From Escherichia phage vB_EcoS_SCS31: a stretch of 46,054 bases of DNA. Both the position numbers and the translations under genes were made by a program. This document shows, piece by piece, positions 20,092 through 45,959 of the stretch. The DNA lies in sequence record ON081052, one strand, 5' to 3'. Below the pieces are notes generated by a model. The model was not told where the DNA came from. It did not search any database and worked only from the letters and a program-made list of their open reading frames with translations. Each line of letters begins with the position of its first letter. The stretch's first letter is position 1.

Positions 20092-20644
20092 CATTAAATT
20101 AGGCCTGTCCATAGGCCGTAAGTTTGGAAAGATTCACCAAATGGCGGTGGGTAGTGTGCCTGAGGCAATGCGAGCGCTTTGCTCTCAGATTCCTGCTTTC
20201 AAGGAGTTCATGAATAGCCATGTCGGTCAGAACACAAGATACGCTGTGTTCGTTGACGGAAAAAATGTGAACGAGCATCGAATCGCTGATTTTAGTGCCG
20301 TTCAGGAAATACGCATTTTACCAATCCCTCAGGGCCGCAAGTCCGGTGGGTTGTTTCAGACAATTTTAGGCGCCGCACTTATCACAGTTGGTATCATTTC
20401 TGGGCAGATTTATCTTGTTGGCGCTGGTGTGTCTTTAGCGGCGGGAGGTATTGCGCAACTACTTTCACCGCAAGCAACTGGATTAAAGACCCAGAACAAC
20501 CAAACTAGCAATAGGGCATCTTACGCATTCGGCTCGGCTGTAAACACAGTAGCCGCTGGTTATCCAGTTTGCCTACCTTATGGCTACCGAACTGTTGGGG
20601 GCTCTGTGTTTAGTGCAGGCAGCTACGCTGAAGACAATGCTTAA
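20072..20644 (+). CDS. tail assembly protein (lambda I-like, putative)
   Basis: 190 aa with C-terminal hydrophobic Gly/Ala-rich segment; position. Confidence 0.5.
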   Translation: MTKKLIDIKLGLSIGRKFGKIHQMAVGSVPEAMRALCSQIPAFKEFMNSHVGQNTRYAVFVDGKNVNEHRIADFSAVQEIRILPIPQGRKSGGLFQTILGAALITVGIISGQIYLVGAGVSLAAGGIAQLLSPQATGLKTQNNQTSNRASYAFGSAVNTVAAGYPVCLPYGYRTVGGSVFSAGSYAEDNA

Positions 20645-20650
20645 ATATCA

Positions 20651-20675
20651 TACCCGCCTAGTGCGGGTTTTTTAT
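20651..20675 (+). terminator. rho-independent terminator
   Basis: ACCCGCCTAGTGCGGGT + T6. Confidence 0.6.
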
Positions 20676-20685
20676 TTAGTGTAGA

Positions 20686-23600
20686 ATGGCACAAATGATC
20701 AAAACAAATATGAGGCTTTGTGATATGGCTGAAGATATTAAGATTTATGGTGCCAAAGGAGGCAGCCAGAAGCAGCATCAACCAGTTGAACAGGAAGACA
20801 ACCTGATTTCATTAAACAAGGTTAAGGTGTTGCTTGCTGTCGCTGACGGAGAGGTTGATTCAAACTTCTCAATGAAGGATTTATACCTTGCTGACGTTCC
20901 TGTGCAAAACCAAGACGGCAGCTACAACTATGAAGGTGTTCGCGCTGAGTTCCGTGCTGGTACGCAGTATCAGGATTATATCGCTGGCCTTGATGGTGCA
21001 AACTCAGAGATTCAGGCTTCCAGAGAAATCACGAACGATACCCCGTACATCATTGCGGTTAACAATACTCAGCTATCAGCTATTCGTGTAAAGCTATATT
21101 GGCCCAGACTGGTTAAGCAAGAAAGTAATGGCGATCTGAACGGAACTACATGCGAGTATGCGATTGACCTGTCTGTTAATGGTGGCGCTTACCAGGAATA
21201 CACTAGCGGAGTTGCTAATGGCAAGACCACTACAGGTTACGACCGCAGCATTCGCGTGAACCTTCCGGCTGAATTTGATAGCGCACTGGTTCGAATCCGT
21301 AAAATTACGCCAGATTCGACAAGTAGCACACTGGTTAACGGGATGCAGATCACAACCTATCAGGAAGTAATTGACGCTAAATTCCGCTATCCGCTTACAG
21401 CCCTGGTTTATGTTGAGTTTGGCTCTGACCTGTTCCCTAACGGCATCCCAACAATCTCCATCAAGAAGCGATGGAAGCTAATTCAGGTTCCGACAAACTA
21501 CAACCCGGAGGCAAGGACTTACAGCGGGACATGGAATGGACTGTTCAAGATGGCGTGGTCAAATAACCCAGCATGGGTTCTTTATGACTTGGTGACAAAC
21601 CGCAGATATGGTCTTGACCAGCGAGAGCTAGGTGTAGAGATTGATAAATGGGGCCTGTACGAAGCTGCGCAATTCTGCGACCAGATGGTTCCAGATGGTA
21701 ATGGTGGAATGGAGCCTCGTTATCTCTGCGACATGGTTGTGCAAAACAAAGTTGAGGCCTACACGCTAATTCGTGATATCTGTTCAATCTTCCGTGGCCT
21801 GACTTTCTATGACGGTGAAAAGATTGGCATCGTGGTTGATAAGCCTCGCAACCCATCTTACATATTCACCAATGATAACGTTGTAAACGGATTGTTCAGT
21901 CGCACCTTTGCCAGTGATAAAAGCCTCTACACTACTGCTAACGTCCAGTTTGATGATGTAGAAAACAACTATCAGCAGGATGTTGAGCCAGTTTTTGAAC
22001 TCGAGGCTACTCGCAGATTCGGATTTAATCCAGTCGACCTTACGGCAATTGGATGTACTCGCAGAAGTGAAGCAAACAGACGTGGAAGATGGCTCCTAAA
22101 AACCAACCTTAGAAGCGAAACTATCAGCTTCACTACCGGGTTGGAAGGCATGATTCCGATGATTGGTGAGGTAATTGCGGTCAATGATGCAGCATGGTCG
22201 AGCAACTATCAGTTAAACCTTTCCGGTCGTATTGAATCAGTCCAGGGATTGCAGGTTTTTACACCGTTTAAAGTTGACGCAGCTCCTGGTGACAGAATTC
22301 TTCTTAACAAGCCTGACGGAAGTCCAGAGGCAAGAACTATTGCCAGCGTTTCGGAAGATGGTAGAACAATCAACCTTAACACTGCTTTCAGTTTTGTGGC
22401 TCAGCCTGACACTGTGTTCGCAATTGATAAGGACAATCTCGCACTTCAGCAGTATGTGGTGACCGGGATTCAAAAAGCAGATTCTGACGGTTCGGATTCA
22501 TTCCAGTATACGATTACTGCTGTAGAGTATGACCCGAACAAGTATGATGAGATTGACTACGGCGTTAACATTGTTGACCGTCCTACTTCAATCGTGGAAC
22601 CTGATAGATTATCGCCACCAGAAAACCTGACCGTATCAAGCTATAGCAAGGTTGTTCAGGGTTTATCAGTTGAGACGATGGTAATTGGCTGGGACAAGTC
22701 GCCATACGCTAAAACATACAATGTTCAATGGAGAAAAGAAAATGGCAACTGGATTAACGTACCCAGAACAGCAAGTACAGAGGTTGATATCGAAGGTATT
22801 TACGCAGGAATCTATGACGTTAGGGTTCGCAGCGTATCAGATACTGAAAACGTGTCTTCCTGGTCTGACATTGTAACGGTATCGCTAACTGGCAAGATTG
22901 GTCGCCCTTCGGCACCTACAGTTATTACGGCGTCAACTGATGAAGTCTTTGGTATCCGTGTTAAATGGGGATTCCCTGAAGGCTCTGGCGATACTGCTTA
23001 CACTGAACTTCAGCAGGTTCCTGATAATGGTGACGGTACTTACAACCCTGATAACGCGAGATTGCTGACGCTGCTGCCATACCCAGCCTATGAATACTGG
23101 CATACGCCAATTCAGCCAGGTAAGGTAATTTGGTATCGCGCAAGATTGATCGACAGAATCGGAAATACCTCTGATTGGTCTGGTTTCGCTAGAGGTATGA
23201 GTACTGACGACGCCAACATTATCAACGATTACATCAAGGTTGATATTGAGGGTTCGGAAGGATTCAAATACCTCGAGCAGAATGCGATTCAGAAGAACCA
23301 GGACATTCAGAATCAGGCAGAATCAATTCTTGAGAACGCATTAGCTAATGACACTGATGTTCGTCGCATGACTAAGGAGAACGGCAAACGTAAGGCTGAA
23401 TATGTTCAGGCGGTTAATCTCATAGCCGATGAAACTCAGGCGCGAGTAGAGGCTCTCACAGCTCTTAAAGCGCAGATAGATGATGAAGTTGTAGCATCGA
23501 TTACAGAAGTTCAGACAGCGCTAGCCACCGAGACAGAAGCAAGGACTACTGCTGACACGGCTCTATCAGCAAGACTTGGTGAAAACGAGGCTGCTCTAAA

Positions 23601-24111
23601 CCAGAAGCTTGATGCTTTCTCCAATGCCACGTCGACTGGTGTACAGTACGGAATTAGTCTTGGCCTGAAATACAATGGGCAGACTTATTCATCCGGTATG
23701 AGCATGGAGCTTGTTGGCACTGGTGGTAATGTTCGTAGTCAATTCATTTTTGACGCAAATAGATTCGCAATTAGTAATGGGATTGGTTCTGGTTCCGGTC
23801 AGTGGCAGCTCCCCTTCGTTGTCGAGAACGGAAACGTAATCATCCAGAGTGCAGTAATCGGTGATGGCTCAATCAGTAACGCGAAGATTGGAAACTTCAT
23901 TCAATCGAATAACTACGTAGCAGGAACTACAGGCTGGAGGATTGATAAATCAGGAAGTGCAGAGCTAAGTAATGCCACGGTAAGGGGTAATCTTTACGCT
24001 AACAATGGTAACTTCGCTTTTAATGGAACCAATAACACGGTTCAGATTAACGGGAATGGAATCACGGTAAACCTACAAAATGGTGGTCGTGTTGTTGTAG
24101 GAGTGTGCTAA
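20686..24111 (+). CDS. central tail fibre / host specificity protein (lambda J-like)
   Basis: 1141 aa; last large gene of tail module; start may be the internal ATG near 20725 (RBS GAGG). Confidence 0.8.
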   Translation: MAQMIKTNMRLCDMAEDIKIYGAKGGSQKQHQPVEQEDNLISLNKVKVLLAVADGEVDSNFSMKDLYLADVPVQNQDGSYNYEGVRAEFRAGTQYQDYIAGLDGANSEIQASREITNDTPYIIAVNNTQLSAIRVKLYWPRLVKQESNGDLNGTTCEYAIDLSVNGGAYQEYTSGVANGKTTTGYDRSIRVNLPAEFDSALVRIRKITPDSTSSTLVNGMQITTYQEVIDAKFRYPLTALVYVEFGSDLFPNGIPTISIKKRWKLIQVPTNYNPEARTYSGTWNGLFKMAWSNNPAWVLYDLVTNRRYGLDQRELGVEIDKWGLYEAAQFCDQMVPDGNGGMEPRYLCDMVVQNKVEAYTLIRDICSIFRGLTFYDGEKIGIVVDKPRNPSYIFTNDNVVNGLFSRTFASDKSLYTTANVQFDDVENNYQQDVEPVFELEATRRFGFNPVDLTAIGCTRRSEANRRGRWLLKTNLRSETISFTTGLEGMIPMIGEVIAVNDAAWSSNYQLNLSGRIESVQGLQVFTPFKVDAAPGDRILLNKPDGSPEARTIASVSEDGRTINLNTAFSFVAQPDTVFAIDKDNLALQQYVVTGIQKADSDGSDSFQYTITAVEYDPNKYDEIDYGVNIVDRPTSIVEPDRLSPPENLTVSSYSKVVQGLSVETMVIGWDKSPYAKTYNVQWRKENGNWINVPRTASTEVDIEGIYAGIYDVRVRSVSDTENVSSWSDIVTVSLTGKIGRPSAPTVITASTDEVFGIRVKWGFPEGSGDTAYTELQQVPDNGDGTYNPDNARLLTLLPYPAYEYWHTPIQPGKVIWYRARLIDRIGNTSDWSGFARGMSTDDANIINDYIKVDIEGSEGFKYLEQNAIQKNQDIQNQAESILENALANDTDVRRMTKENGKRKAEYVQAVNLIADETQARVEALTALKAQIDDEVVASITEVQTALATETEARTTADTALSARLGENEAALNQKLDAFSNATSTGVQYGISLGLKYNGQTYSSGMSMELVGTGGNVRSQFIFDANRFAISNGIGSGSGQWQLPFVVENGNVIIQSAVIGDGSISNAKIGNFIQSNNYVAGTTGWRIDKSGSAELSNATVRGNLYANNGNFAFNGTNNTVQINGNGITVNLQNGGRVVVGVC

Positions 24112-24115
24112 TAAA

Positions 24116-24145
24116 TAAAGCCCCTGAATAGGGGCTTTTCTTTTA
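24116..24145. terminator. bidirectional terminator between convergent genes
   Basis: AAAGCCCCTGAATAGGGGCTTTTCTTTT. Confidence 0.6.
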
Positions 24146-25105
24146 GTACATGTTTGGTATGTATGGAACTGCCATTGATATGTTTGTATCTAAATGGAAA
24201 TGTGCGCCAGTCCGTGTTGAATAGTTTCCAATTACACTACCAAACCCAGACCTGACAGATCCATTAGACATTACGACCCCTTTGTATCTAAGGTTGTTAT
24301 ACCCGCCAGTTACTCGAGTCGTAGCTCCAGTCCTGAGTATCGGGAAGTATCCGCCACCTATCGACTGATATCCATTGCTTATTTGTATAAATCCACTAAG
24401 TACGAATGGTCGCCTAACGCTTGAAAAAACAATCTGACCAGAGCTATTTGACATTGTTAGTCCTGGTCCGGCTGGTGGGGGTTCATTTCTGAATATCACC
24501 AGCTGAACATAAGTACTTGCCGAAACATCATCTGTACCTCCGTAGGTTATATCCCTGCACCATATTGTTGATCCATCTGATTCAAGTGATACGTTTGGAT
24601 TATCCCACTTGCCGAATGGTATGCCGCTAACTGGTAGCGATGCCGCCCCGTTAACCTGTATGCCTCCAACCCATGCTGCTGACATTAGTCTCGAGTTGCT
24701 TGATATAGCAAGGAAATCAGTTGAGTTCTCAACGAGTATCCCTGGGCTTGATGAAGGTGATGCTGGTAGAATTTCAAAACAATTACCCGCAAAGTCAATT
24801 ATTCGACCATTGGCACCATTGAAGTTACTAAGTGTTATCCTGCCAACTCCGTCATTAACCTTTTGGAATCCGTTCATGTAATAAACTTCAGGTATAACAT
24901 CGTAAGCATCAACGTGGACTGCCTTCGTTGGTAGGCAGAAAGCCGTAGAGCCAGGAGACATTGTCAATCCAAAATCCCACGAACTTGCTGGGGTTGAAAG
25001 TCCATTGGTATTTATTGATCCAGTCACAGCAGGTGCCCTTAATCCTGCCGTTATTTCCATCGCTGGTCTTCCGTCATTGAGGTCAATCAATATACCCTGC
25101 GGCAT
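24143..25105 (-). CDS. beta-rich Gly/Ser/Asn-rich protein, possible receptor-binding/tail-associated protein (320 aa)
   Basis: ATG 25105 with RBS AAGGAG, start overlaps lipoprotein stop (TAATG coupling); composition only. Confidence 0.4.
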   Translation of the reverse strand: MPQGILIDLNDGRPAMEITAGLRAPAVTGSINTNGLSTPASSWDFGLTMSPGSTAFCLPTKAVHVDAYDVIPEVYYMNGFQKVNDGVGRITLSNFNGANGRIIDFAGNCFEILPASPSSSPGILVENSTDFLAISSNSRLMSAAWVGGIQVNGAASLPVSGIPFGKWDNPNVSLESDGSTIWCRDITYGGTDDVSASTYVQLVIFRNEPPPAGPGLTMSNSSGQIVFSSVRRPFVLSGFIQISNGYQSIGGGYFPILRTGATTRVTGGYNNLRYKGVVMSNGSVRSGFGSVIGNYSTRTGAHFHLDTNISMAVPYIPNMY

Positions 25106-25356
25106 TATTTCCACTCCTTGCTGCCATGATCTGCAATAGAGCCACCGTAACCGCCGCCAGCCTTGCTTTCAATTCCGGCGTAGCGAACATCAACCTCACC
25201 AGCCGGAACAACTACGCCACCTTTCCATTTAGCTACGCACACACCATTTGCTTGTGTTGCACACCAACCATCCGGGCGAGGACCAGATGAGCAACCTACC
25301 ATCATGATTGCTGCTGCGGCGATGATTGAAAGTTTGATTAATTTAGTCATTTTCAT
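25105..25356 (-). CDS. outer-membrane lipoprotein, Cor/Llp-like superinfection-exclusion candidate
   Basis: N-terminus [25 protein letters not shown]: signal peptide plus lipobox Cys; small size; adjacent to tail fibre region. Confidence 0.5.
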
Positions 25357-25384
25357 GTTCCTTAGAATGTGTGTTTCGTTTTGA

Positions 25385-25436
25385 TGGAGTAATCATATCT
25401 TAACTGTTAGGTTTGTCTTTAGCTATTCGTGCTATT
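25385..25436 (-). promoter_or_regulatory. phage promoter, palindromic motif class (minus strand)
   Basis: Reverse complement reads AATAGCACGAATAGCTAAAG ... TATGATTAC ... CATCAAAACGAAAC. Confidence 0.45.
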
Positions 25437-25679
25437 CAACCATCTGTTATATTTATCCCTCTCCTTGATTGCCTTTTCAAGTGACTTGAATCTTAAAAGT
25501 AGCGGCATACAGTCAACACCCATAATTAAGGATTCGTCGCAGCTATTTGCGCCAGTCAGCCAAAGAGAGAAGTATTGTTGATCGAGGCCGTAGTTCCTGT
25601 CTTTATTGACCCTAACGCTAACAACTTTAAATTTTAAACCAGCCAACTTAACCTTATCTATAAATTCTGACTTATTCAT
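25419..25679 (-). CDS. hypothetical small protein (start trimmed from track ORF)
   Basis: Track ORF N-terminus overlaps promoter copy at 25737; internal ATG 25679 with RBS GGAGCAA. Confidence 0.35.
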   Translation of the reverse strand: MNKSEFIDKVKLAGLKFKVVSVRVNKDRNYGLDQQYFSLWLTGANSCDESLIMGVDCMPLLLRFKSLEKAIKERDKYNRWLNSTNS

Positions 25680-25699
25680 CTTGTTGCTCCTTTTTAGTT

Positions 25700-25753
25700 T
25701 ACCTGGAAATGGTACATCACCCATGAGATTTGTCTTTAGCAATTAGTGCTATT
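25700..25753 (-). promoter_or_regulatory. phage promoter, palindromic motif class (minus strand)
   Basis: Reverse complement reads AATAGCACTAATTGCTAAAG. Confidence 0.45.
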
Positions 25754-26225
25754 GGTTACGCGTAACCGATGTAACTCGATGTATACCATATCCATCCGCG
25801 GGAAATCAGTTACGCCATATTGCGCACAGTTACGCTTTAGTTACACTAAAATATCTATATATATAAAGGGTTTAGATAATTATTATTATTATCTATATAT
25901 ATAGTGTAACTGCTGCAACTCATAATATTGGTATGTTGCGTTTGTTTTTCTATATGATGATTATCTTTGTTATCTGGCGTGGCTAAATGGATGTAGGGTG
26001 TGGTGCACCACATAAAAGATACCGTTACATTGGTTACATGTGAGTTACATTGAGGATTTATGCGGTCTGCGGTGGCTAAAAACGTAACAAAGGAGAGCCT
26101 ATACATGAAATTACGTCATTTGACGCGTAATCATAATTTATTAATCGGTGATATCTATTGGACTGCGCTGCCACCCTCTCATATGATCAACCCATCGAAA
26201 GCAAACAACCATAGAGAGACGCAAA

Positions 26226-26420
26226 ATGGCTTACTTCATCATTAAAGAGAAAAACAACGCACTATTCGGCGACTGCTACTTCGGAGGTGAGGCAGGTTAC
26301 ACTACAGATAAGAATGAGGCAGACCGATTTGAAACGAAGGAAGATGCCAAATCTGTCCTGACCGGATACTTCACAGAAGAAGATTTTAAATTGGTTAAGA
26401 TTGTTAAGGTTAAGGAGTGA
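26226..26420 (+). CDS. hypothetical protein (64 aa)
   Basis: ORF track. Confidence 0.35.
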   Translation: MAYFIIKEKNNALFGDCYFGGEAGYTTDKNEADRFETKEDAKSVLTGYFTEEDFKLVKIVKVKE

Positions 26421-26423
26421 ATC

Positions 26424-26621
26424 ATGAAGGCTTTTATAGACATAAATAAGTCACCATACAACGACGAACCGGATCCTGAGGTAAGAATAAGGATAAAATT
26501 TAAAACTGGAAGAGAGATAAACATAACAACAACATGCTCTGGTATATCAAAAGCGATAATGGGATGCAGTGAAATCCCTGTAGATGTATCACTTAGAAAT
26601 GTAGAGGTTAAAATAAAATGA
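26424..26621 (+). CDS. hypothetical protein (65 aa)
   Basis: ORF track; ATGA overlap with next gene. Confidence 0.35.
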   Translation: MKAFIDINKSPYNDEPDPEVRIRIKFKTGREINITTTCSGISKAIMGCSEIPVDVSLRNVEVKIK

Positions 26622-27583
26622 GCTTTAAAGTTTTTACTCGAGAAGAGCTAAGCAATGAGTCTTACCACTCCGAGACCGACCACATCTCAGGCTCCTCACT
26701 TGTCGAGATTATCCAGGGATCCCCAGCCAAGTGGAAGTTTAAGCAGCGCAACAATGATAGCAAGGCCCTTAAGTTTGGAACGCTGAGTCACAGTATGATC
26801 CTTGAAGGTGACATGTTTGATAAAGAATACCTTCGCGCAACCGACCTTGACGCGATTGAAGGCCTAATTACAAGCCAGACAGGATTATCAGCAGCACTCA
26901 AAAAGGTTGGCGTGGCTGGAACGTCTGGGAAGGCCTATAGCGAGCTTGTGGAGATGATGTATCGATATTCTGAGGACTGGCCTGTTAAGTGGCTAATTGA
27001 ACAGCAGGAGAGCGCGCAGGCGATTGCGGAGGGTAAGGAGCTAGTTAGCGCAGCAGACTATGACAAAGTGGTAGCGATGCGCGAGGTTCTTTGCAACATT
27101 CCGGCGTATAATGCGATTGTGAATAGCGAGACGGCGCAGAAAGAGCTATCAATCTTTGGTGAGATTCTCGGGGTTGGCGTGAAGATTCGAATTGACCACG
27201 TTGATGTTATTGATGGAGTAGTTCGGATCACAGATTATAAAACGACAGCGGACGCAAGCCCGGAAGGATTCGGCAAATCGGCATTCTCGCACGGATACCT
27301 TGCAAAAATGGCGCTTCAGCGAGATCTGTTTGTGAAGGCATTTAACGAGAAGCGAAAAGTTGTTGTTGGATTGCTGGCGCAGGAGAAAGTAGAACCATAC
27401 CTTCCAATGCTGTACACCCTAACTGACGAACAGCTACGAATTGGTCGTCTTCAGTATCTTGAAGCGCTTGCCACATACAAGAAGTGTAAAGAGCTAGATA
27501 TCTGGCCTGGTTACTCGAATGGCATTACGGAGCAAGAGCTGATTATTCCTGAGTGGGCTATTAAACAATATAGAGAGATATAA
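26618..27583 (+). CDS. PD-(D/E)XK-type exonuclease (RecE/Cas4-like, putative)
   Basis: Motif IDHVDVIDGVVRITDYKT resembles the D...D-x-K nuclease core; sits upstream of annealing protein and SSB. Confidence 0.55.
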   Translation: MSFKVFTREELSNESYHSETDHISGSSLVEIIQGSPAKWKFKQRNNDSKALKFGTLSHSMILEGDMFDKEYLRATDLDAIEGLITSQTGLSAALKKVGVAGTSGKAYSELVEMMYRYSEDWPVKWLIEQQESAQAIAEGKELVSAADYDKVVAMREVLCNIPAYNAIVNSETAQKELSIFGEILGVGVKIRIDHVDVIDGVVRITDYKTTADASPEGFGKSAFSHGYLAKMALQRDLFVKAFNEKRKVVVGLLAQEKVEPYLPMLYTLTDEQLRIGRLQYLEALATYKKCKELDIWPGYSNGITEQELIIPEWAIKQYREI

Positions 27584-27655
27584 AATGAACAAATCGCTAA
27601 AAAAACTGGGATGACTTAGGTATAGTTATCCAATCAACAACGAACGAGGTTAAAG

Positions 27656-28306
27656 ATGCAAATTTCAGAATCATGCAAATCAATTTTAAAAGCGCTACAC
27701 ACTGCAAAATCGCTATTTGCGAAGGCTGAAAAGTCCAAGCAGAACTCTCACCTTAAAAATAAGTACGCCACACTTGAAGACGTACTGGCGGCTGTTGAGC
27801 CAGGACTTGATGAGTGCGGGCTGGTGATGTTACAGAGCGTGCTTGATGATGATCAAACTAATCTGCTAAAGGTTGAGACAAAGCTATTTCACGCAGAATC
27901 TGGGGAGTGGGTTAGCTTCTTAATGATTGTCCCAATCAGCAAGAATGATGCTCAAGGTTACGGCTCAGCGCTTACATACGCTCGACGCTACGGAATCACA
28001 GCAGCTTTAGGTCTTAGCCAGACAGATGATGATGGAAATCTTGCAGCTAAGGGTGTTAAAGACTTCAAGCGAGAACTTGAGAAGTGCAGCACTATTGATG
28101 AGCTTCGCAATGTTTGGAAGGAAGCTAAGCAATCACTAGACGCTGCAGGATGGAAGGTTTTCGAGCCACACATCATAGAGCGCAAGGCAGAGATTGAATC
28201 AAATGCGATGACTGGCTTCAACCCAGCAACACCAAAGAAAGTAGCAGAAAAAAGTAGTCCTGAAGAAAAGATTGAAGTAGAATCACAACAAATCGACACA
28301 TTCTAA
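27656..28306 (+). CDS. single-strand annealing protein (ERF-like, putative)
   Basis: Position between exonuclease and SSB; size 216 aa. Confidence 0.45.
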   Translation: MQISESCKSILKALHTAKSLFAKAEKSKQNSHLKNKYATLEDVLAAVEPGLDECGLVMLQSVLDDDQTNLLKVETKLFHAESGEWVSFLMIVPISKNDAQGYGSALTYARRYGITAALGLSQTDDDGNLAAKGVKDFKRELEKCSTIDELRNVWKEAKQSLDAAGWKVFEPHIIERKAEIESNAMTGFNPATPKKVAEKSSPEEKIEVESQQIDTF

Positions 28307-28353
28307 ATTTAACTTGGCTGCGGCCCCAACATAAAACGAGAAGAGATAAAAAC

Positions 28354-28815
28354 ATGCATGTAATTACTGGTCAGATTCGCCGCGCTCCATTCACTAAAGA
28401 AGGTCGCAACGCTAACGGTAACTGGAAAATGTTCGCCATCGAGATGAGCGAATCATACAAGACTAAAGATGGCGAGCGTAAGTACAGTAATTACCGGATT
28501 ACGATGTTTGCCAGTGAGGCGCAGATTAGTTGGTATGATGAAGCATTTCAGGAAGGAAAAGTTATTTCTGTTAGTGGTGATTCATTGGCGGTTAATGAGC
28601 GTGAGCATAATGGAAAGGTTTATATTACGCTTGAGTTGCAGAATCCTCGATTGATGTTTAGCCAGCGCGGCAGTGAATTAGCTACACAGCAACAGCGCCA
28701 GCAGCATCAGCAACAGCAGCGGCAGCAACCACAGCATCAAAGCCAGTTTGAAGACGATATTCCGTTTGCTCCTATTGGTCTTCAGTACGGTATGTCAAAT
28801 ATTTATGTACTATAA
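28354..28815 (+). CDS. ssb: single-stranded DNA-binding protein
   Basis: Gln-rich linker and C-terminal acidic tail ending DDIPF-like (FEDDIPFAPIG), a hallmark of SSB. Confidence 0.65.
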   Translation: MHVITGQIRRAPFTKEGRNANGNWKMFAIEMSESYKTKDGERKYSNYRITMFASEAQISWYDEAFQEGKVISVSGDSLAVNEREHNGKVYITLELQNPRLMFSQRGSELATQQQRQQHQQQQRQQPQHQSQFEDDIPFAPIGLQYGMSNIYVL

Positions 28816-29215
28816 AGTCTGTTTCAAATGTGGTGGGCTTAAGCCCATCACGGAGTTCTATAAACATAAAGCCATGGCTGACGGACGTGTAAATAAGTGT
28901 AATGAATGCAATAATGTTGATGTTAAATCAAATAGAAAATCAAAAATAGAATATTACAGAGAGTACGATAGAGAAAGGGGCAATAGACAGAAGGATGGTT
29001 ACGTTAAGGAGTATAGATCAAGAAACCCCATAAAATATAATTGCCACACGATTTTAAATAACGCTATAAGGGATGGTAAGATCAATAAAAAACCTTGCGA
29101 GGTTTGCGGGAATGATAAGGCGGTAGCTCATCATGATGATTACTCAAAACCAATGGATGTAAGATGGCTATGCCAAGCTCACCATATGCAATGGCACGCA
29201 GAAAACGGAGAATGA
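28748..29215 (+). CDS. HNH endonuclease (putative; start probably internal)
   Basis: C-terminal CEVCG ... HHDDYSKP ... WLCQAHHMQWH zinc-finger/HNH motif. Confidence 0.55.
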   Translation: MKTIFRLLLLVFSTVCQIFMYYKVCFKCGGLKPITEFYKHKAMADGRVNKCNECNNVDVKSNRKSKIEYYREYDRERGNRQKDGYVKEYRSRNPIKYNCHTILNNAIRDGKINKKPCEVCGNDKAVAHHDDYSKPMDVRWLCQAHHMQWHAENGE

Positions 29216-29232
29216 TTAAACGGATAAAAGAT

Positions 29233-29257
29233 AAGGCCCCCTTCGGGGCCTTTTTTA
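29233..29257. terminator. bidirectional terminator
   Basis: AAGGCCCCCTTCGGGGCC + T6. Confidence 0.6.
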
Positions 29258-32074
29258 CGAAGCTGTATTTACCTGAAGATATGCACCATTAGTTGCACCA
29301 AACCATGCGTAAGCAGATCCGTAAGTTGTTGGGTTGTCATTTAAAATGAAATCACCCGCTCTAATTACGCACTTTGCTCCATATGTATCAGTGGGTCTTG
29401 CACTAAACCCATAGTCAACATATCTAAAACCAACCTTCGTTACGTTATCGTTAAGCGGGAAGATCCTTAAGAAGCTGGAATCTCTAAAGTCATTGTTCCT
29501 GAAAATTCCTCCTGTAAAGTTATCCATATCAAACATTGTTGTTAAACTTGAAGCAACAGTATTCATGAACTTGTTGCCTTCATATGTCGGAGCTACTACT
29601 TCATAGCCAACTCTTAGCTGAACAAATCCCCCATCAATAATATTGTCCTTGACTATTGGATATTGCCCGCCGATTGCTAAGCCACCAAACCCAGGTGTAA
29701 ATTTGCAACTATTATTACTAAATATAGTGCCAACCCACGCCTGATTTGTAAGGTATGGTGCCTTAGTGTCTGTCATGGTGTTCCCGGTGATAATCAATCC
29801 ATTCTTGGCCTGGATTCCCTCCTGGTAGCCCTGAATCGCTACGCCGCCACCAATCATAATGTTGCTGGATATAATAATGTTGCTCAACCCCTCATTAACA
29901 CCCCAATCACTTTCTGCATCATTTGTTATCAGTAAGTAGTGAGAAGAAGCCCTGCCAGTAGCGTCCGTAGTTATAATGCTTGTATTGCCTTTGCATATAA
30001 CATTGTTTGCCGCAAAAACCTCAACAAACATACCAGCACCTTCGTAGTAGTTATCCGTAACCGTTACGTTATTGCCAGCCGGGGTTATCCTTGACTGGAT
30101 AGATATTGGATAATAGAACTTGTTGGCGTGAGCGTAAGACCTTCGGCTTCCCTCGGATATTGCATAATCCTCCGCGAAAGTATGCCATGCCCTTCCTGAC
30201 TGTTTTGTTGTGTTTCCTATAAACTCTGAGTAGTCACAGTTTCTTGTGATTAAGCAGTAGTTAGCGTTGTATCTGAAGCTTGAATTTCTAAGAGATACGA
30301 ATGCATTAGGTAAGCCATTAAGAGCATCGGCATTAACAAAGGCCCTCGAGGCATTAACCTCCATACCCTCGATCACAACTGATGCGCATCCTTCAACCAT
30401 AAAACCAAACCAGTCTTCTCTTGGTTTATGCTCTGTATCCGTTGGTTGGATTGAGTAATCTGAAAAGTCAGTATTCCAGTTGAGTCCGCTAGCTTTAAAT
30501 GTGCAATATTTAAGCCCGAAAACAACCCTCTCGGGTGATGTGCTTCCAGAGATATCAATATCAACATCATTATTGGCAAAAATGTCAACAGTAAGTCCAT
30601 TGAGGAAGAATGCCGTTTGCCTTAACACTCTGTACTTATCATTGTACTGAACACCATCGGAGAATGAGACTTTCAGTCTTCCAGCGCTAATTCTTACCTT
30701 CCTGTTTGTATTGTGACCAAGGTTTATACATGCCATAACCGAGGCGTTTGATTCATTAACTCCAGACACATCATGACCAGCCCATTCGGTATGGATATCA
30801 TCAACACCTCCCGTAAACCTAACCCAGCAACCATTTTTACCTGGTGATGTCTCACCCGCTCCGCTAAGGAATCCTGGGAGCGTGGAATATGTACCATCAA
30901 ATGGAACTGTTGGGCTAAAGATGGTAACCCCATTGTGACTACTCTTGCTTACTGATGGATCCCAGTAAAACAAACCACCTCCAGAGTTTGCTCCAGAAAT
31001 ATAAGACCTGACATTTGCCAAGTTTCCATTCGTAGTTGGTTGCCGGATTAGTTCATAAATTGAATTAACTGAAGATAGCCCTAAATTACTCCTGGCAAGG
31101 CTTTTATCTTCAATATCAGAGAAATTCAATGATTTGTTGAAAGTCTCAGATTTTGAATAAACATCAAGTAAGCCCCTTACTCGCTGGGCGCTAGCTCCGC
31201 CAACCTGACTTCCTGATGCGACATAAAGCGCCTCTCTTGAATAGTAAGTTTTGCTTGGTGCCGTGCCAGTCTGAGTTAAATCAATCACCCTGTACGCATT
31301 ATCTGAGCCGGTAGATGCTGAAACTTGTATGTTCTTAACACCAGTAAGCCCCCTTGCTGACTTAACCTCAATCGTACAAAGTGTGCTATCGGAGTAGGTT
31401 GTATTTATCACCTCTGGAGCGTTGATCATTGCTGACTTTTGGCATAGGTATCTAGCCCCGGACTTGAAATCAAACGTATTCCAGTCAAGTTCTGTCAACT
31501 GAGGTGTATTCGAGCCACCAATACCAATATTGGCAAGAGTTACCAAAGTACCAGCGTCACCAGCATTATTAATTGCTGCAATTGTAGCGTCACGGGCAGC
31601 TGTTGTTGTGTTTCTTGCACTAACAGCAGTAGCAGCGCTATCTGCGGCGGCAATCTGGCTAGCTAAAGCATCCGCTGCTCCTTGCACTGACTGGCTTGCC
31701 AATTGCTCAAAGCGAGGCCAATCAAAAGAATCCTGACCAATGAAATCAATCAGGCTCTGAATGCTAGTTTCCCTACTCTGATAATAACGCAGAGTCTCTG
31801 CAACATTCTGAGCCAAACCCTGAACGGTAATCCCATCGTGAGCAAGGATCGCATAACCAGTTCCGGCAGGAACAGTTTCAGAGTTAGGGTTGTAAACATT
31901 CAATCTGGTATCGCTGATAATTTCTGAGATGGTGTAAATCTGTACTGGTTCAGTTTTAAATACGATGGTTGCACCAACTCTGATCAGTGTAAGTGGCATG
32001 CTCCATGTCGTCCCAACGCCAGTTACCTCGCCATTTGCAGCTAGTGAAGCTGTTCCAAGATCATAAATTGCCAT
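29255..32074 (-). CDS. tail fibre / tailspike-like protein, possible depolymerase (approx 939 aa)
   Basis: Ala-rich helical segment (AADSAATAVSARNTTTAARDATIAAINNAG) then long Gly/Asn/Thr-rich region suggestive of beta-helix; ATG 32074 with RBS GGAGAC. Confidence 0.65.
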   Translation of the reverse strand: MAIYDLGTASLAANGEVTGVGTTWSMPLTLIRVGATIVFKTEPVQIYTISEIISDTRLNVYNPNSETVPAGTGYAILAHDGITVQGLAQNVAETLRYYQSRETSIQSLIDFIGQDSFDWPRFEQLASQSVQGAADALASQIAAADSAATAVSARNTTTAARDATIAAINNAGDAGTLVTLANIGIGGSNTPQLTELDWNTFDFKSGARYLCQKSAMINAPEVINTTYSDSTLCTIEVKSARGLTGVKNIQVSASTGSDNAYRVIDLTQTGTAPSKTYYSREALYVASGSQVGGASAQRVRGLLDVYSKSETFNKSLNFSDIEDKSLARSNLGLSSVNSIYELIRQPTTNGNLANVRSYISGANSGGGLFYWDPSVSKSSHNGVTIFSPTVPFDGTYSTLPGFLSGAGETSPGKNGCWVRFTGGVDDIHTEWAGHDVSGVNESNASVMACINLGHNTNRKVRISAGRLKVSFSDGVQYNDKYRVLRQTAFFLNGLTVDIFANNDVDIDISGSTSPERVVFGLKYCTFKASGLNWNTDFSDYSIQPTDTEHKPREDWFGFMVEGCASVVIEGMEVNASRAFVNADALNGLPNAFVSLRNSSFRYNANYCLITRNCDYSEFIGNTTKQSGRAWHTFAEDYAISEGSRRSYAHANKFYYPISIQSRITPAGNNVTVTDNYYEGAGMFVEVFAANNVICKGNTSIITTDATGRASSHYLLITNDAESDWGVNEGLSNIIISSNIMIGGGVAIQGYQEGIQAKNGLIITGNTMTDTKAPYLTNQAWVGTIFSNNSCKFTPGFGGLAIGGQYPIVKDNIIDGGFVQLRVGYEVVAPTYEGNKFMNTVASSLTTMFDMDNFTGGIFRNNDFRDSSFLRIFPLNDNVTKVGFRYVDYGFSARPTDTYGAKCVIRAGDFILNDNPTTYGSAYAWFGATNGAYLQVNTAS

Positions 32075-36166: not shown

Positions 36167-36209
36167 CACGAATTGCTAAAGAAGATTTTAAAGGATGGGG
36201 TATAGTTAC
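36163..36209 (+). promoter_or_regulatory. phage promoter, palindromic motif class
   Basis: AATAGCACGAATTGCTAAAG ... TATAGTTAC ... CATCGAAACGAAACG. Confidence 0.5.
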
Positions 36210-36242
36210 TCCATCGAAACGAAACGCAGAGAGAGAAACAAA

Positions 36243-36440
36243 ATGGCTACTATCTATACAGGAATCAACTACGAGTCACGCAAAACTGGTTACATCTACG
36301 AGCTAGTCGTTACTGAAGATGGTTACATTCTCGAGGATATCGACGACTCAAATTACGCATTCGAAGTTACCCCAACATACAAAGATGATTTAGAAACTGT
36401 TAAAAACGCATTTGGCGAAAAATTTGATGAGGTATCATAA
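36243..36440 (+). CDS. hypothetical protein
   Basis: ATG 36243 downstream of conserved leader. Confidence 0.3.
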   Translation: MATIYTGINYESRKTGYIYELVVTEDGYILEDIDDSNYAFEVTPTYKDDLETVKNAFGEKFDEVS

Positions 36441-45402: not shown

Positions 45403-45959
45403 ATCTCAATCCTCAAATAAATGGCAAGCATTCGACGCAGCCAAGCCCATCACAGCACATGAATTCATCTTCTGACTGGAACTGCTTTGCTAAATCAATG
45501 TCTAGCCTTCCGCGCAACACAAGGTCGGTGTAATCTTCATTAAGCCCAATCAGTGCGCACTCGTTACGTAACTCATCTTTATTCTTTTTCATTTATCCTG
45601 GCCTTTTAAATTATGACGCTCTCTCAGAACTTCAACCCATTCTTGCGCGTCATTCTCTCTCATGAAGAAACTTAACTTTGGGTACTTGTGAAACCCTTTA
45701 AGTTCAACTATCCAATGGCCACCTTCGTAACTATAACTAACTTTCTTCTCTGTCATTTTGTTACCTTTTGAGTTTTTTTTGTTATCGACATCTCTTCAAC
45801 GTACTCGCTACAACTCGGGATTTTACTCCCGGCCCGGCATCCTAACAAAAGGACCCGCTCGGCGCTTTGGTGGGTGAGGTAACGCTTCCTCACATTGCGC
45901 GGTATCATTTACCCTTTTTAGTCCCTTTCGGGAGTGACTCAGAGTCTGCTACCGTGTCG

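Follow-up and report, generated by a model that had tools for sequence, protein, structure and literature searches.

What does the cassette of three minus-strand genes that separates the GpJ-like tail-tip gene from the recombination module in Escherichia phage vB_EcoS_SCS31 (ON081052) encode, and could two of its products form a pair in which one protein binds the phage receptor and the other masks it? Such a pair had been suggested in an initial annotation made from the sequence alone. The complete record of 46,054 nucleotides (the window) was analyzed. Its sequence is a mosaic related to that of phage ACG-M12 (Drexlerviridae), with 100% identity across most of the cassette. As first described, the three genes (24143-25105, 320 aa; 25105-25350, 81 aa; 25419-25679, 86 aa) run opposite to plus-strand flanks, formed by the gpJ-like gene (20686-24111) on one side and by genes from 26060 on at the other. 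The features of the region are as follows.

20686..24111, plus strand: GpJ-like central tail fibre or tail-tip protein, 1141 aa (Pfam matches FNIII-A_GpJ, Phage-tail_3 and Phage_Tail_Tip)
24117..24138, both strands: bidirectional intrinsic terminator of the convergent gpJ and RBP genes (stem and T-runs)
24143..25105, minus strand: predicted LptD-targeting receptor-binding protein (RBP), 320 aa, DUF6453 / Rtp44 / RBP-Oeko family (Pfam, phmmer, AF2 and Foldseek)
25105..25350, minus strand: predicted superinfection-exclusion outer-membrane lipoprotein, 81-aa precursor, Rtp45 family (Pfam PF24052, phmmer)
25392..25436, minus strand: promoter-like module before the lipoprotein-RBP operon (motif AATAGCACGAATAGCTAAAGA at 25436-25416; -10 TATGAT at 25397-25392)
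25419..25679, minus strand: 86-aa putative accessory gene, phrog_4423, outside the RBP/exclusion module (PHROG match)
25709..25753, minus strand: second copy of the promoter-like module, before the 86-aa gene (motif at 25753-25733; weak -10-like TACCAT at 25714-25709)

The start of the lipoprotein gene was placed at 25350 (MTKL...; 81 aa) rather than at 25356 (83 aa), on the basis of Shine-Dalgarno spacing and homologues, and the RBP reading frame starts with the ATG at 25105. The proposed translational coupling of these two genes was confirmed: in the sequence TAATG the last base of the lipoprotein stop (25107-25105) is also the first base of the RBP start codon ATG (25105-25103), with AAGGAG located 8 nt upstream of the RBP start. 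The same one-base overlap is found in the annotated coordinates of Rtp, Bas01 and OzMSK. For the third gene the ATG at 25679 is the most likely start, rather than the TTG at 25742 given by the listing of open reading frames. The stop codons of gpJ and the RBP gene converge 31 bp apart and have the terminator in common. A minus-strand reading frame at 25855-26106 (83 aa) was considered as a further gene, but it has no family match and is unannotated in ACG-M12, and it was treated as non-coding.

The 320-aa protein had been described as Gly/Ser/Asn-rich and beta-rich, which its composition (Gly 12.1%, Ser 11.5%, Asn 7.2%) and an almost entirely beta AF2 model (pLDDT 87.4, pTM 0.87) bear out. It matched Pfam DUF6453 (PF20051) with E=1e-140 over profile positions 1-291 of 291, and in phmmer its residues 2-320 matched chain C of 9RPT, the Oekolampad RBP on open LptDE, with E=1.4e-64. 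When the model was compared with the PDB using Foldseek, the sole significant match was again 9rpt_C (TM 0.90, target-normalised; rmsd 3.0 Å; E=3e-21), and the predicted fold is consistent with the double beta-sandwich of RBP-Oeko. The structure and homology comparison with known RBPs called for in the initial annotation thus returned a solved LptD ligand. Identity was 95% to ACG-M12 gp41, 92% to the OzMSK RBP and 42-43% over the full length to Rtp44 and the Bas01 RBP; for the RBPs of Dhillonvirus it came to about 42%. Conservation within the family is highest in the first 25 residues, in agreement with the base-docking model of PMC13035648. The RBP gene adjoins gpJ here as in Rtp, Bas01 and OzMSK, and the RBP presumably docks onto GpJ, which is 84-100% identical to Rtp gp43 per 100-aa block.

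The RBP family has been characterized structurally and genetically (PMC8594841, PMC13035648, PMC12685063), and the view of the 320-aa protein as uncharacterised, possibly a novel exclusion factor, was mistaken. Maffei (2021) matched this type of locus to LptD (PMC8594841), and two mutants in LptD loops are not infected by OzMSK (PMC13035648). Phages whose RBPs share >30% identity over >99% coverage constitute an LptD RBP family, set off from the FhuA, BtuB and YncD families, and all experimentally typed members above 30% identity use LptD (bioRxiv 10.64898/2026.04.02.716166). By this rule the SCS31 RBP falls within the LptD family (92% to OzMSK, 43% to Bas01).

In RefSeq the 320-aa protein is named "membrane protein", and phrog_1265 carries the category "moron, auxiliary metabolic gene and host takeover". 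Read literally, these labels would make it a non-virion membrane protein or an exclusion factor, a reading that is almost certainly wrong. The protein has no hydrophobic or transmembrane segment (maximum KD19 of 1.08), no signal peptide is visible in its sequence, and its predicted all-beta fold is soluble. It is, besides, a direct homologue of a solved extracellular LptD ligand, and in prophages the DUF6453 genes belong to the tail gene cluster, where they come directly after gpJ and have its orientation. The "membrane protein / moron" label was rejected on the hydrophobicity profile and the predicted fold.

The product of the middle gene carries the lipobox that had been pointed out (...AAAIMMVG-C20-SSG), with Ser as residue +2. 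It matched Pfam PF24052 (Phage_lipoprotein) with E=1e-38 and chain D of 9RPS, which is Rtp45 solved on LptDEM (PMC12685063), with E=9e-38 in phmmer. Identity to the homologues of Rtp (Rtp45), Bas01 and OzMSK was 83-88% (about 86% to Rtp45, 88% to the OzMSK protein), and the ACG-M12 lipoprotein has exactly the same sequence (100%). In an alignment of five lipoproteins Cys20 (lipobox MVGC), Cys30 and Cys38 are invariant. In Rtp45 the last two form a disulfide pair and strand 30-35 pairs with LptD residues 318-323 (PMC12685063); the corresponding residues 30-35 read CATQAN in SCS31 and CATQAS in Rtp45. Relative to Rtp45 a 5-residue insertion, SKAGG, is present near the C-terminus, common to OzMSK.

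The lipoprotein had been called Cor/Llp-like, and a Cor or Llp homologue, like the proteins of T1, phi80 and T5, would be expected to mask FhuA or a different TonB-dependent transporter. Its position and orientation are indeed those of T1 cor, downstream of gpJ and the RBP gene, with the exonuclease VIII gene beyond it, and one GenBank record labels a feature beneath the match "Cor superinfection exclusion protein". However, T1 Cor aligned in BLASTP only over residues 6-25, a 20-aa stretch made up of signal peptide and lipobox, and scored 17.7 bits against the PF24052 profile, for which the cut-off is 27; with these two methods no similarity between the mature lipoprotein and T1 Cor could be detected. 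A phmmer search of all PDB chains at E<=10, among which structures of T5 Llp are presumably included, returned only Rtp45 and chance matches such as L27 and glyoxylate carboligase, with no Llp. Candidate homology to Cor and to Llp was rejected on these grounds, and, given also the 86% identity to Rtp45, it is extremely improbable that the protein is a FhuA-type Cor or Llp. The comparison that had been recommended with Cor and Llp thus led to Rtp45 instead; the functional and positional analogy stood, the sequence homology did not. Judged from its sequence, the lipoprotein is a predicted analogue of Cor and Llp, without detectable homology to either.

Both proteins match solved structures of an LptDE-bound pair, in agreement with the proposal of a receptor-binding plus receptor-masking pair next to the tail-tip gene, and the matches to 9RPT and 9RPS support LptD, which was among the receptors first suggested. 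Small T1-like siphoviruses have a "bona fide RBP locus" just downstream of gpJ, and the cassette very probably represents its LptD allele. The LptD dependence of SCS31 is predicted by transfer from OzMSK, whose RBP is 92% identical, and from more distant homologues. Since homology and gene arrangement were established here and the binding modes by cryo-EM of homologues, we infer the binding modes of the SCS31 proteins. The combination of an RBP with a receptor-masking lipoprotein is an already described module of T1-like coliphages and is not new; Dunbar (2025) reported both structures, of the RBP and of the exclusion lipoprotein on LptDE, together with the exclusion mechanism (PMC12685063).

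By this model the RBP would be a terminal, beta-sandwich protein whose variable tip loops enter the lumen of the LptD beta-barrel from outside. LptD is the barrel of the LptDE lipopolysaccharide translocon, and insertion of the tip would lead to irreversible adsorption and DNA ejection. In the infected cell the lipoprotein would be made from the same operon as the RBP, exported, lipidated at Cys20 and, with Ser at +2, sorted to the inner leaflet of the outer membrane. There it would bind LptDE from the periplasm and push a hairpin up the barrel lumen, displacing extracellular loop 4 (EL4), so that incoming virions would be unable to bind via their RBP, resulting in superinfection exclusion. 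Exclusion would also shield progeny from adsorption to cell debris.

Comparison of the window with ACG-M12 revealed 100% identity from 24400 to 26600 and about 18% nucleotide divergence in the final 260 nt of the RBP coding sequence, with a recombination breakpoint near 24400. The C-terminal 85 residues of the protein are thus recombinant, and 16 of 86 residues differ from ACG-M12. The closest sequence to this segment in the databases searched is 85% identical as protein and 82% as DNA. Gln299 of RBP-Oeko, which contacts LptD EL4, aligns within the variable segment, where the window has Arg or Thr; as Gln299 is not kept, the details of the contact may differ. An artificial mutation of ACG-M12 was considered, the two sequences being of the same length without indels, and was rejected: 286 of the 326 substitutions in gpJ fall at third codon positions and the substitutions are clustered in blocks, a pattern of natural mosaicism. 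A swap of the tip-proximal C-terminal segment near 24400 with the lipoprotein left unchanged could reflect natural tip swapping that alters the LptD loops or alleles recognized, or that escapes common lptD resistance mutations; we regard this as an unlikely interpretation. If true, it would be of use in engineering phages that target LptD.

Could the recombinant tip have retargeted the RBP to another outer-membrane protein, another LptD surface or a co-receptor, so that LptD is not the sole receptor? The number of changed residues and the distance to the best match are in favor, as is the fact that the tip loops are the variable part of the RBP family (PMC13035648); Bas01 does use dual receptors, though via GpJ (bioRxiv 10.64898/2026.04.02.716166). 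On the other hand, the cognate lipoprotein is unchanged, and an LptD-directed exclusion protein would be useless after a change of receptor. Every typed family member above 30% identity targets LptD, and the 33-aa divergent block inserted in Bas01 GpJ, which may equal its NupG-specific domain, is missing from the GpJ of the window. Retargeting is very unlikely, and recognition of LptD by the recombinant RBP remains the preferred reading.

The cassette had been described as bounded by a bidirectional terminator and an AT-rich module, and both were found. The sequence AAAGCCCCTGAATAGGGGCTTT at 24117-24138 scores as a terminator on either strand; its hairpin has a 9-bp stem (5 GC pairs), a 4-nt loop and T-runs on both strands, and is kept in ACG-M12 with a different loop. 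At the other edge the GC content is 31% in 25800-25999. Palindromic promoter-like motifs precede the cassette genes, as proposed, with copies before the third gene (25753-25733) and before the lipoprotein gene (25436-25416). They belong to an oriented module, AATAGCAC-N-AAT-N-GCTAAA, which includes TAGCA-N5-TGCTA and has a TATNAT-like hexamer at motif positions 40-45, and of which the window has about 13 copies (0 expected). The copy before the 86-aa gene (25709-25753) was also detected as a direct repeat (D1, 28 nt, 89%). The -10 TATGAT ahead of the lipoprotein gene was also recovered by a separate scan, and in OzMSK, Rtp and Bas01 the module likewise stands immediately before the lipoprotein gene.

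The third gene, listed with the other two in the initial annotation, does not belong to the RBP/exclusion module. Its product matched PHROG 4423 (E=8e-41), annotated as of unknown function; a search of Pfam and NCBIfam gave no match, and that of PHROG no functional one. Homologues with 44-57% identity are spread among T-even-like phages (IME08, AR1), E. coli phages of about 150 kb and Klebsiella siphoviruses, and a large protein search returned only two close relatives. In relatives the slot holds other genes or none. The AF2 model (pLDDT 72) has an alpha-beta3-alpha topology, and comparison of the fold with the PDB gave no match at E<0.5; a dsRBD- or HicA-like fold had been suspected and was set aside with that result. 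On these comparisons the third gene is a putative unrelated accessory gene in a variable slot, outside the RBP/exclusion module and independent of it, preceded by its own copy of the promoter-like module that is standard in the phage.

The cassette reveals no new biology. The practical gain lies in annotation: in ACG-M12-type genomes "membrane protein" becomes "LptD receptor-binding protein" and "putative phage lipoprotein" becomes "superinfection-exclusion lipoprotein". The terminal receptor of the phage also becomes predictable. LptD is essential and conserved, and phages that use it are therefore relevant to therapy and "phage steering". They are also troublesome contaminants of laboratories and fermentations, and infect fhuA (T1-resistant) strains.

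Among known systems, the RBPs of Oekolampad (Bas18; PDB 9RPT/9RPW/9RQI), Rtp (Rtp44), Bas01 (Bas01_0028) and OzMSK (OzMSK_038) have the same length, fold, N-terminal base, gpJ neighbor and pairing with a lipoprotein gene. The SCS31 RBP differs in belonging to the ACG-M12/OzMSK sub-clade, in the recombinant allele of its last 85 residues (<=85% identity elsewhere) and in lacking the Oekolampad contact residue Gln299. Rtp45 (9RPS), about 86% identical to the SCS31 lipoprotein, has the same signal peptide, Cys20, Cys30-Cys38 pair and overlap with the RBP gene, and a near-identical LptD-pairing strand; the SCS31 protein is distinguished by the SKAGG insertion and by a few substitutions within the Gly-rich C-terminal tail, both of them common to OzMSK. 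The DUF6453 genes of Enterobacter and Citrobacter prophages (30-47% identity) also directly adjoin gpJ, but on the same strand, with a tail-fibre gene next and no lipoprotein gene called at the loci examined. The T5 pb5/Llp pair and the FhuA-RBP/Cor pairs of T1 and phi80 follow the same logic, an RBP and a lipoprotein acting from the periplasmic side encoded together, in T1 at the same genomic position. Their mature proteins have no detectable similarity to those of the SCS31-type pair, and the receptor is FhuA there and LptDE for the SCS31-type pair. In the Rtp45-type mechanism EL4 is displaced sterically by way of the barrel lumen, in contrast to the long-range allostery of the FhuA pairs (PMC12685063).

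Three minus-strand genes were found in the ORF list and the sequence to run against their flanks, as proposed in the initial annotation. On one side is the plus-strand gene for a 1141-aa protein, and on the other a plus-strand recombination module (exonuclease VIII, Erf and SSB).

Genes and terminator of the cassette and its border
20686-24111, plus strand: GpJ gene, 1141 aa, with GpJ, Phage-tail_3 and tail-tip domains
24117-24138, both strands: bidirectional intrinsic terminator
24143-25105, minus strand: receptor-binding protein (RBP) gene, 320 aa
25105-25350, minus strand: lipoprotein gene, 81 aa (83 aa if the upstream ATG is used)
25419-25679, minus strand: third gene, 86 aa

The other features read earlier from the sequence were also recovered: the terminator hairpin scored on each strand, the GC content of the AT-rich stretch fell to 31% at 25800-25999, the lipobox reads MVG-C20 followed by SSG, and the lipoprotein stop codon overlaps the ATG of the RBP gene as TAATG, with AAGGAG 8 nt upstream of that ATG. 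The Shine-Dalgarno sequence AAGGA is spaced 8 nt from the ATG at 25350 and only 2 nt from that at 25356; this spacing and the N termini of homologues favour the 81-aa lipoprotein.

The 320-aa product is Gly/Ser/Asn-rich (12.1, 11.5 and 7.2%) and predicted to be almost entirely beta, as first described. It belongs to Pfam DUF6453 over its full length (E=1e-140). Among all PDB chains it had one match (E=1.4e-64, residues 2-320): chain C of 9RPT/9RPW/9RQI, which carries the label 'tail fiber protein' and represents the RBP of phage Oekolampad (Bas18) (PMC12685063). The structure prediction suggested in the initial annotation agreed: an AlphaFold2 model from 51 homologues (pLDDT 87.4) gave 9rpt_C, a known receptor-binding protein, as the only significant Foldseek match in the PDB (E=3e-21, target-normalised TM 0.90). 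The RefSeq label 'membrane protein' is unsupported, since the protein has no hydrophobic segment (maximum KD19 = 1.08).

Using resistance mutations, Maffei et al. were the first to link the outer-membrane channel LptD to this allele of the gpJ-downstream locus, and their prediction for phage Rtp was LptD as well (PMC8594841). Two lptD loop-deletion mutants are not infected by phage OzMSK (PMC13035648), whose GenBank record names the RBP gene putative LptD receptor-binding protein. According to a 2026 preprint, four unrelated families at the locus, defined by >30% identity at >99% coverage, track FhuA, BtuB, LptD and YncD (bioRxiv 10.64898/2026.04.02.716166); by this rule the window RBP belongs to the LptD family. 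Conservation across the RBP family peaks in the first 25 residues, which fits a proposed model of tail docking by an N-terminal base and LptD binding by variable loops (PMC13035648). In Enterobacter and Citrobacter prophages a DUF6453 gene directly follows gpJ on the same strand, strengthening the tie of DUF6453 to the tail tip. In the loci L006-L009 of such temperate prophages a tail-fibre gene (Phage_tail_C_2) came next after this gene (5001-5966), and none of the genes called nearby was a PF24052 lipoprotein gene. Given the same-strand arrangement and the lack of a called lipoprotein gene, the inverted cassette may be specific to small lytic siphoviruses.

The lipoprotein matched Pfam PF24052 (E=1e-38) and had one PDB match, chain D of 9RPS (E=9e-38); this chain is Rtp45, the exclusion lipoprotein of Rtp, solved on LptDEM (PMC12685063). 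Cys20, Cys30 and Cys38 were invariant among the aligned lipoproteins; in Rtp45 Cys20 is lipidated, Cys30 and Cys38 form a disulfide pair, and residues 30-35 (CATQAS, against CATQAN in the window) form a beta-sheet with LptD 318-323 (PMC12685063). Rtp45 occupies a periplasmic site between LptE and LptM; its hairpin reaches up the lumen and moves extracellular loop 4 of LptD by as much as 20 A, blocking RBP binding (PMC12685063). Residue +2 of the window lipoprotein is Ser. Under the standard Lol sorting rule Ser at +2 directs a lipoprotein to the outer membrane, so the window protein should be destined for that membrane.

The RBP was 95% identical to ACG-M12 gp41, 92% to OzMSK_038 and 42-43% to Rtp44 and Bas01_0028, the RBPs of Rtp and Bas01, whereas the lipoprotein was 100% identical to that of ACG-M12, 88% to OzMSK, 86% to Rtp45 and 83% to Bas01. 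One reading of the contrast with Rtp and Bas01 (42-43% against 83-86%) is that the extracellular interface would be fast-evolving and recombining and the periplasmic face of LptD constant; if so, cross-exclusion would be expected among LptD phages of different RBP sub-clades.

Positions 23900-26300 were collinear, at 96%, with Escherichia phage vB_EcoS_ACG-M12 (46,054 bp; Drexlerviridae, Braunvirinae, Guelphvirus). Compared base by base over 20402-29800, the two showed no indels; blocks of 100% identity (24400-26600 and 28500-29800) alternated with blocks 7-20% diverged (20400-24400 and 26600-28500), and most substitutions fell at third codon positions (286/326 in gpJ). These observations show the window to be a natural mosaic relative of ACG-M12. 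At about 24400, inside the RBP gene, complete identity fell sharply and 16 of the last 86 residues were changed; the last 85 residues are thus a different allele, with a best DNA match of 82% and a best protein match of 85%, to a protein 66% identical elsewhere. Gln299 of the Oekolampad RBP, which contacts LptD EL4 (PMC12685063), aligns inside this variable segment. The breakpoint is the sole feature of the cassette with some novelty, and this is modest.

In the neighbouring GpJ, alignment columns 901-1000 were 95-99% identical to Rtp GpJ. The insertion of 33 residues and the divergent block that Bas01 has are missing from the window protein; the block may correspond to the NupG-specific GpJ domain reported for Bas01, so a NupG co-requirement would not be expected here. 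Beyond the cassette, plus-strand ORFs 26060-26245 and 26226-26420 matched consecutive halves of phrog_35664 (28-79 and 80-143). In Rtp the place is taken by the single 132-aa gene rtp46; a split or frameshifted version may be present in the window and in ACG-M12.

The cassette had been described as driven by palindromic-motif promoters. An oriented module of about 60 nt, AATAGCAC-N-AAT-N-GCTAAA, includes the palindrome TAGCA-N5-TGCTA and, at motif positions 40-45, a TATAGT/TATGAT-like -10 hexamer followed by the conserved leader CCATCGAAACGA (also given as TTACCCCATCGAAACGA). About 13 copies occurred against 0 expected (25-mer at up to 3 mismatches), nearly always oriented with the downstream genes.

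Copies of the promoter-like module
2115, 2746, 5965, 13124, 17151, 18845, 36162, 40778 and also 32097, plus strand
25436, minus strand: before the lipoprotein-RBP operon
25753, minus strand: before the third gene
44832 and 46014, minus strand

Since the palindrome module and hexamer precede both units, the earlier wording was fair, the promoters themselves remaining putative. OzMSK, Rtp and Bas01 likewise carry the module before the lipoprotein-RBP operon. No -35 element was found at normal spacing; the palindrome centre lies about 42 bp ahead of where transcription is expected to start, off the normal -35 position and like a class-II activator site. The module may mark a class of promoters dependent on a phage or host factor; no published description was found in a search extending to sources other than the Rtp genome paper. 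Intergenic clusters of the pentamer GTTAC/GTAAC were also seen at 139-560, 36205-36366, 45568-45879 and 25755-26084, the last (12 copies in 330 bp against about 0.8 expected) lying between the cassette and the divergent plus-strand genes and including, at 25755, a perfect palindrome, GTTACGCGTAAC. These clusters may serve a phage regulator as operator sites.

The third-gene product belongs to phrog_4423 (function unknown) and matched nothing in Pfam or NCBIfam; its model (alpha-beta3-alpha, moderate pLDDT of 72) had no match in the PDB. Homologues at 44-57% identity, in T-even-like phages (IME08, AR1), E. coli phages of about 150 kb and Klebsiella siphoviruses, sit away from RBP loci. The same slot is empty in Rtp, holds DNA methyltransferases in Bas01 and OzMSK, and anti-repressor or KilA genes in others. 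The third gene is accessory, fills a variable slot and lies outside the RBP/lipoprotein module. It is flanked by a 28-nt direct repeat (25409-25436 and 25726-25753, 89% identical) whose copies are the two promoter-like modules of the cassette, the downstream one also coding the last five codons and stop codon of the gene. These repeated promoters may be recombination points for accessory-gene exchange in this slot.

The lipoprotein had been called Cor/Llp-like. This holds as an analogy of position, T1 cor occupying the same genomic position, and of presumed function; homology to either family was not detected. T1 Cor aligned in BLASTP only over the 20-residue signal peptide and lipobox, and scored under the PF24052 threshold. 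T5 Llp is expected among the PDB chains, where at E<=10 nothing beyond Rtp45 and chance matches appeared. The lipoprotein thus would act, by analogy, like Cor and Llp, yet is no detectable member of either family, and its mechanism would differ in being steric, not allosteric (PMC12685063). The proposed receptor-binding and receptor-masking pair was right in substance, with matches to the Oekolampad RBP and Rtp45 on LptDE. The pair is an already described system: its genetics date from 2021, and experiments on a 92%-identical RBP and structures for both protein families followed in 2025.
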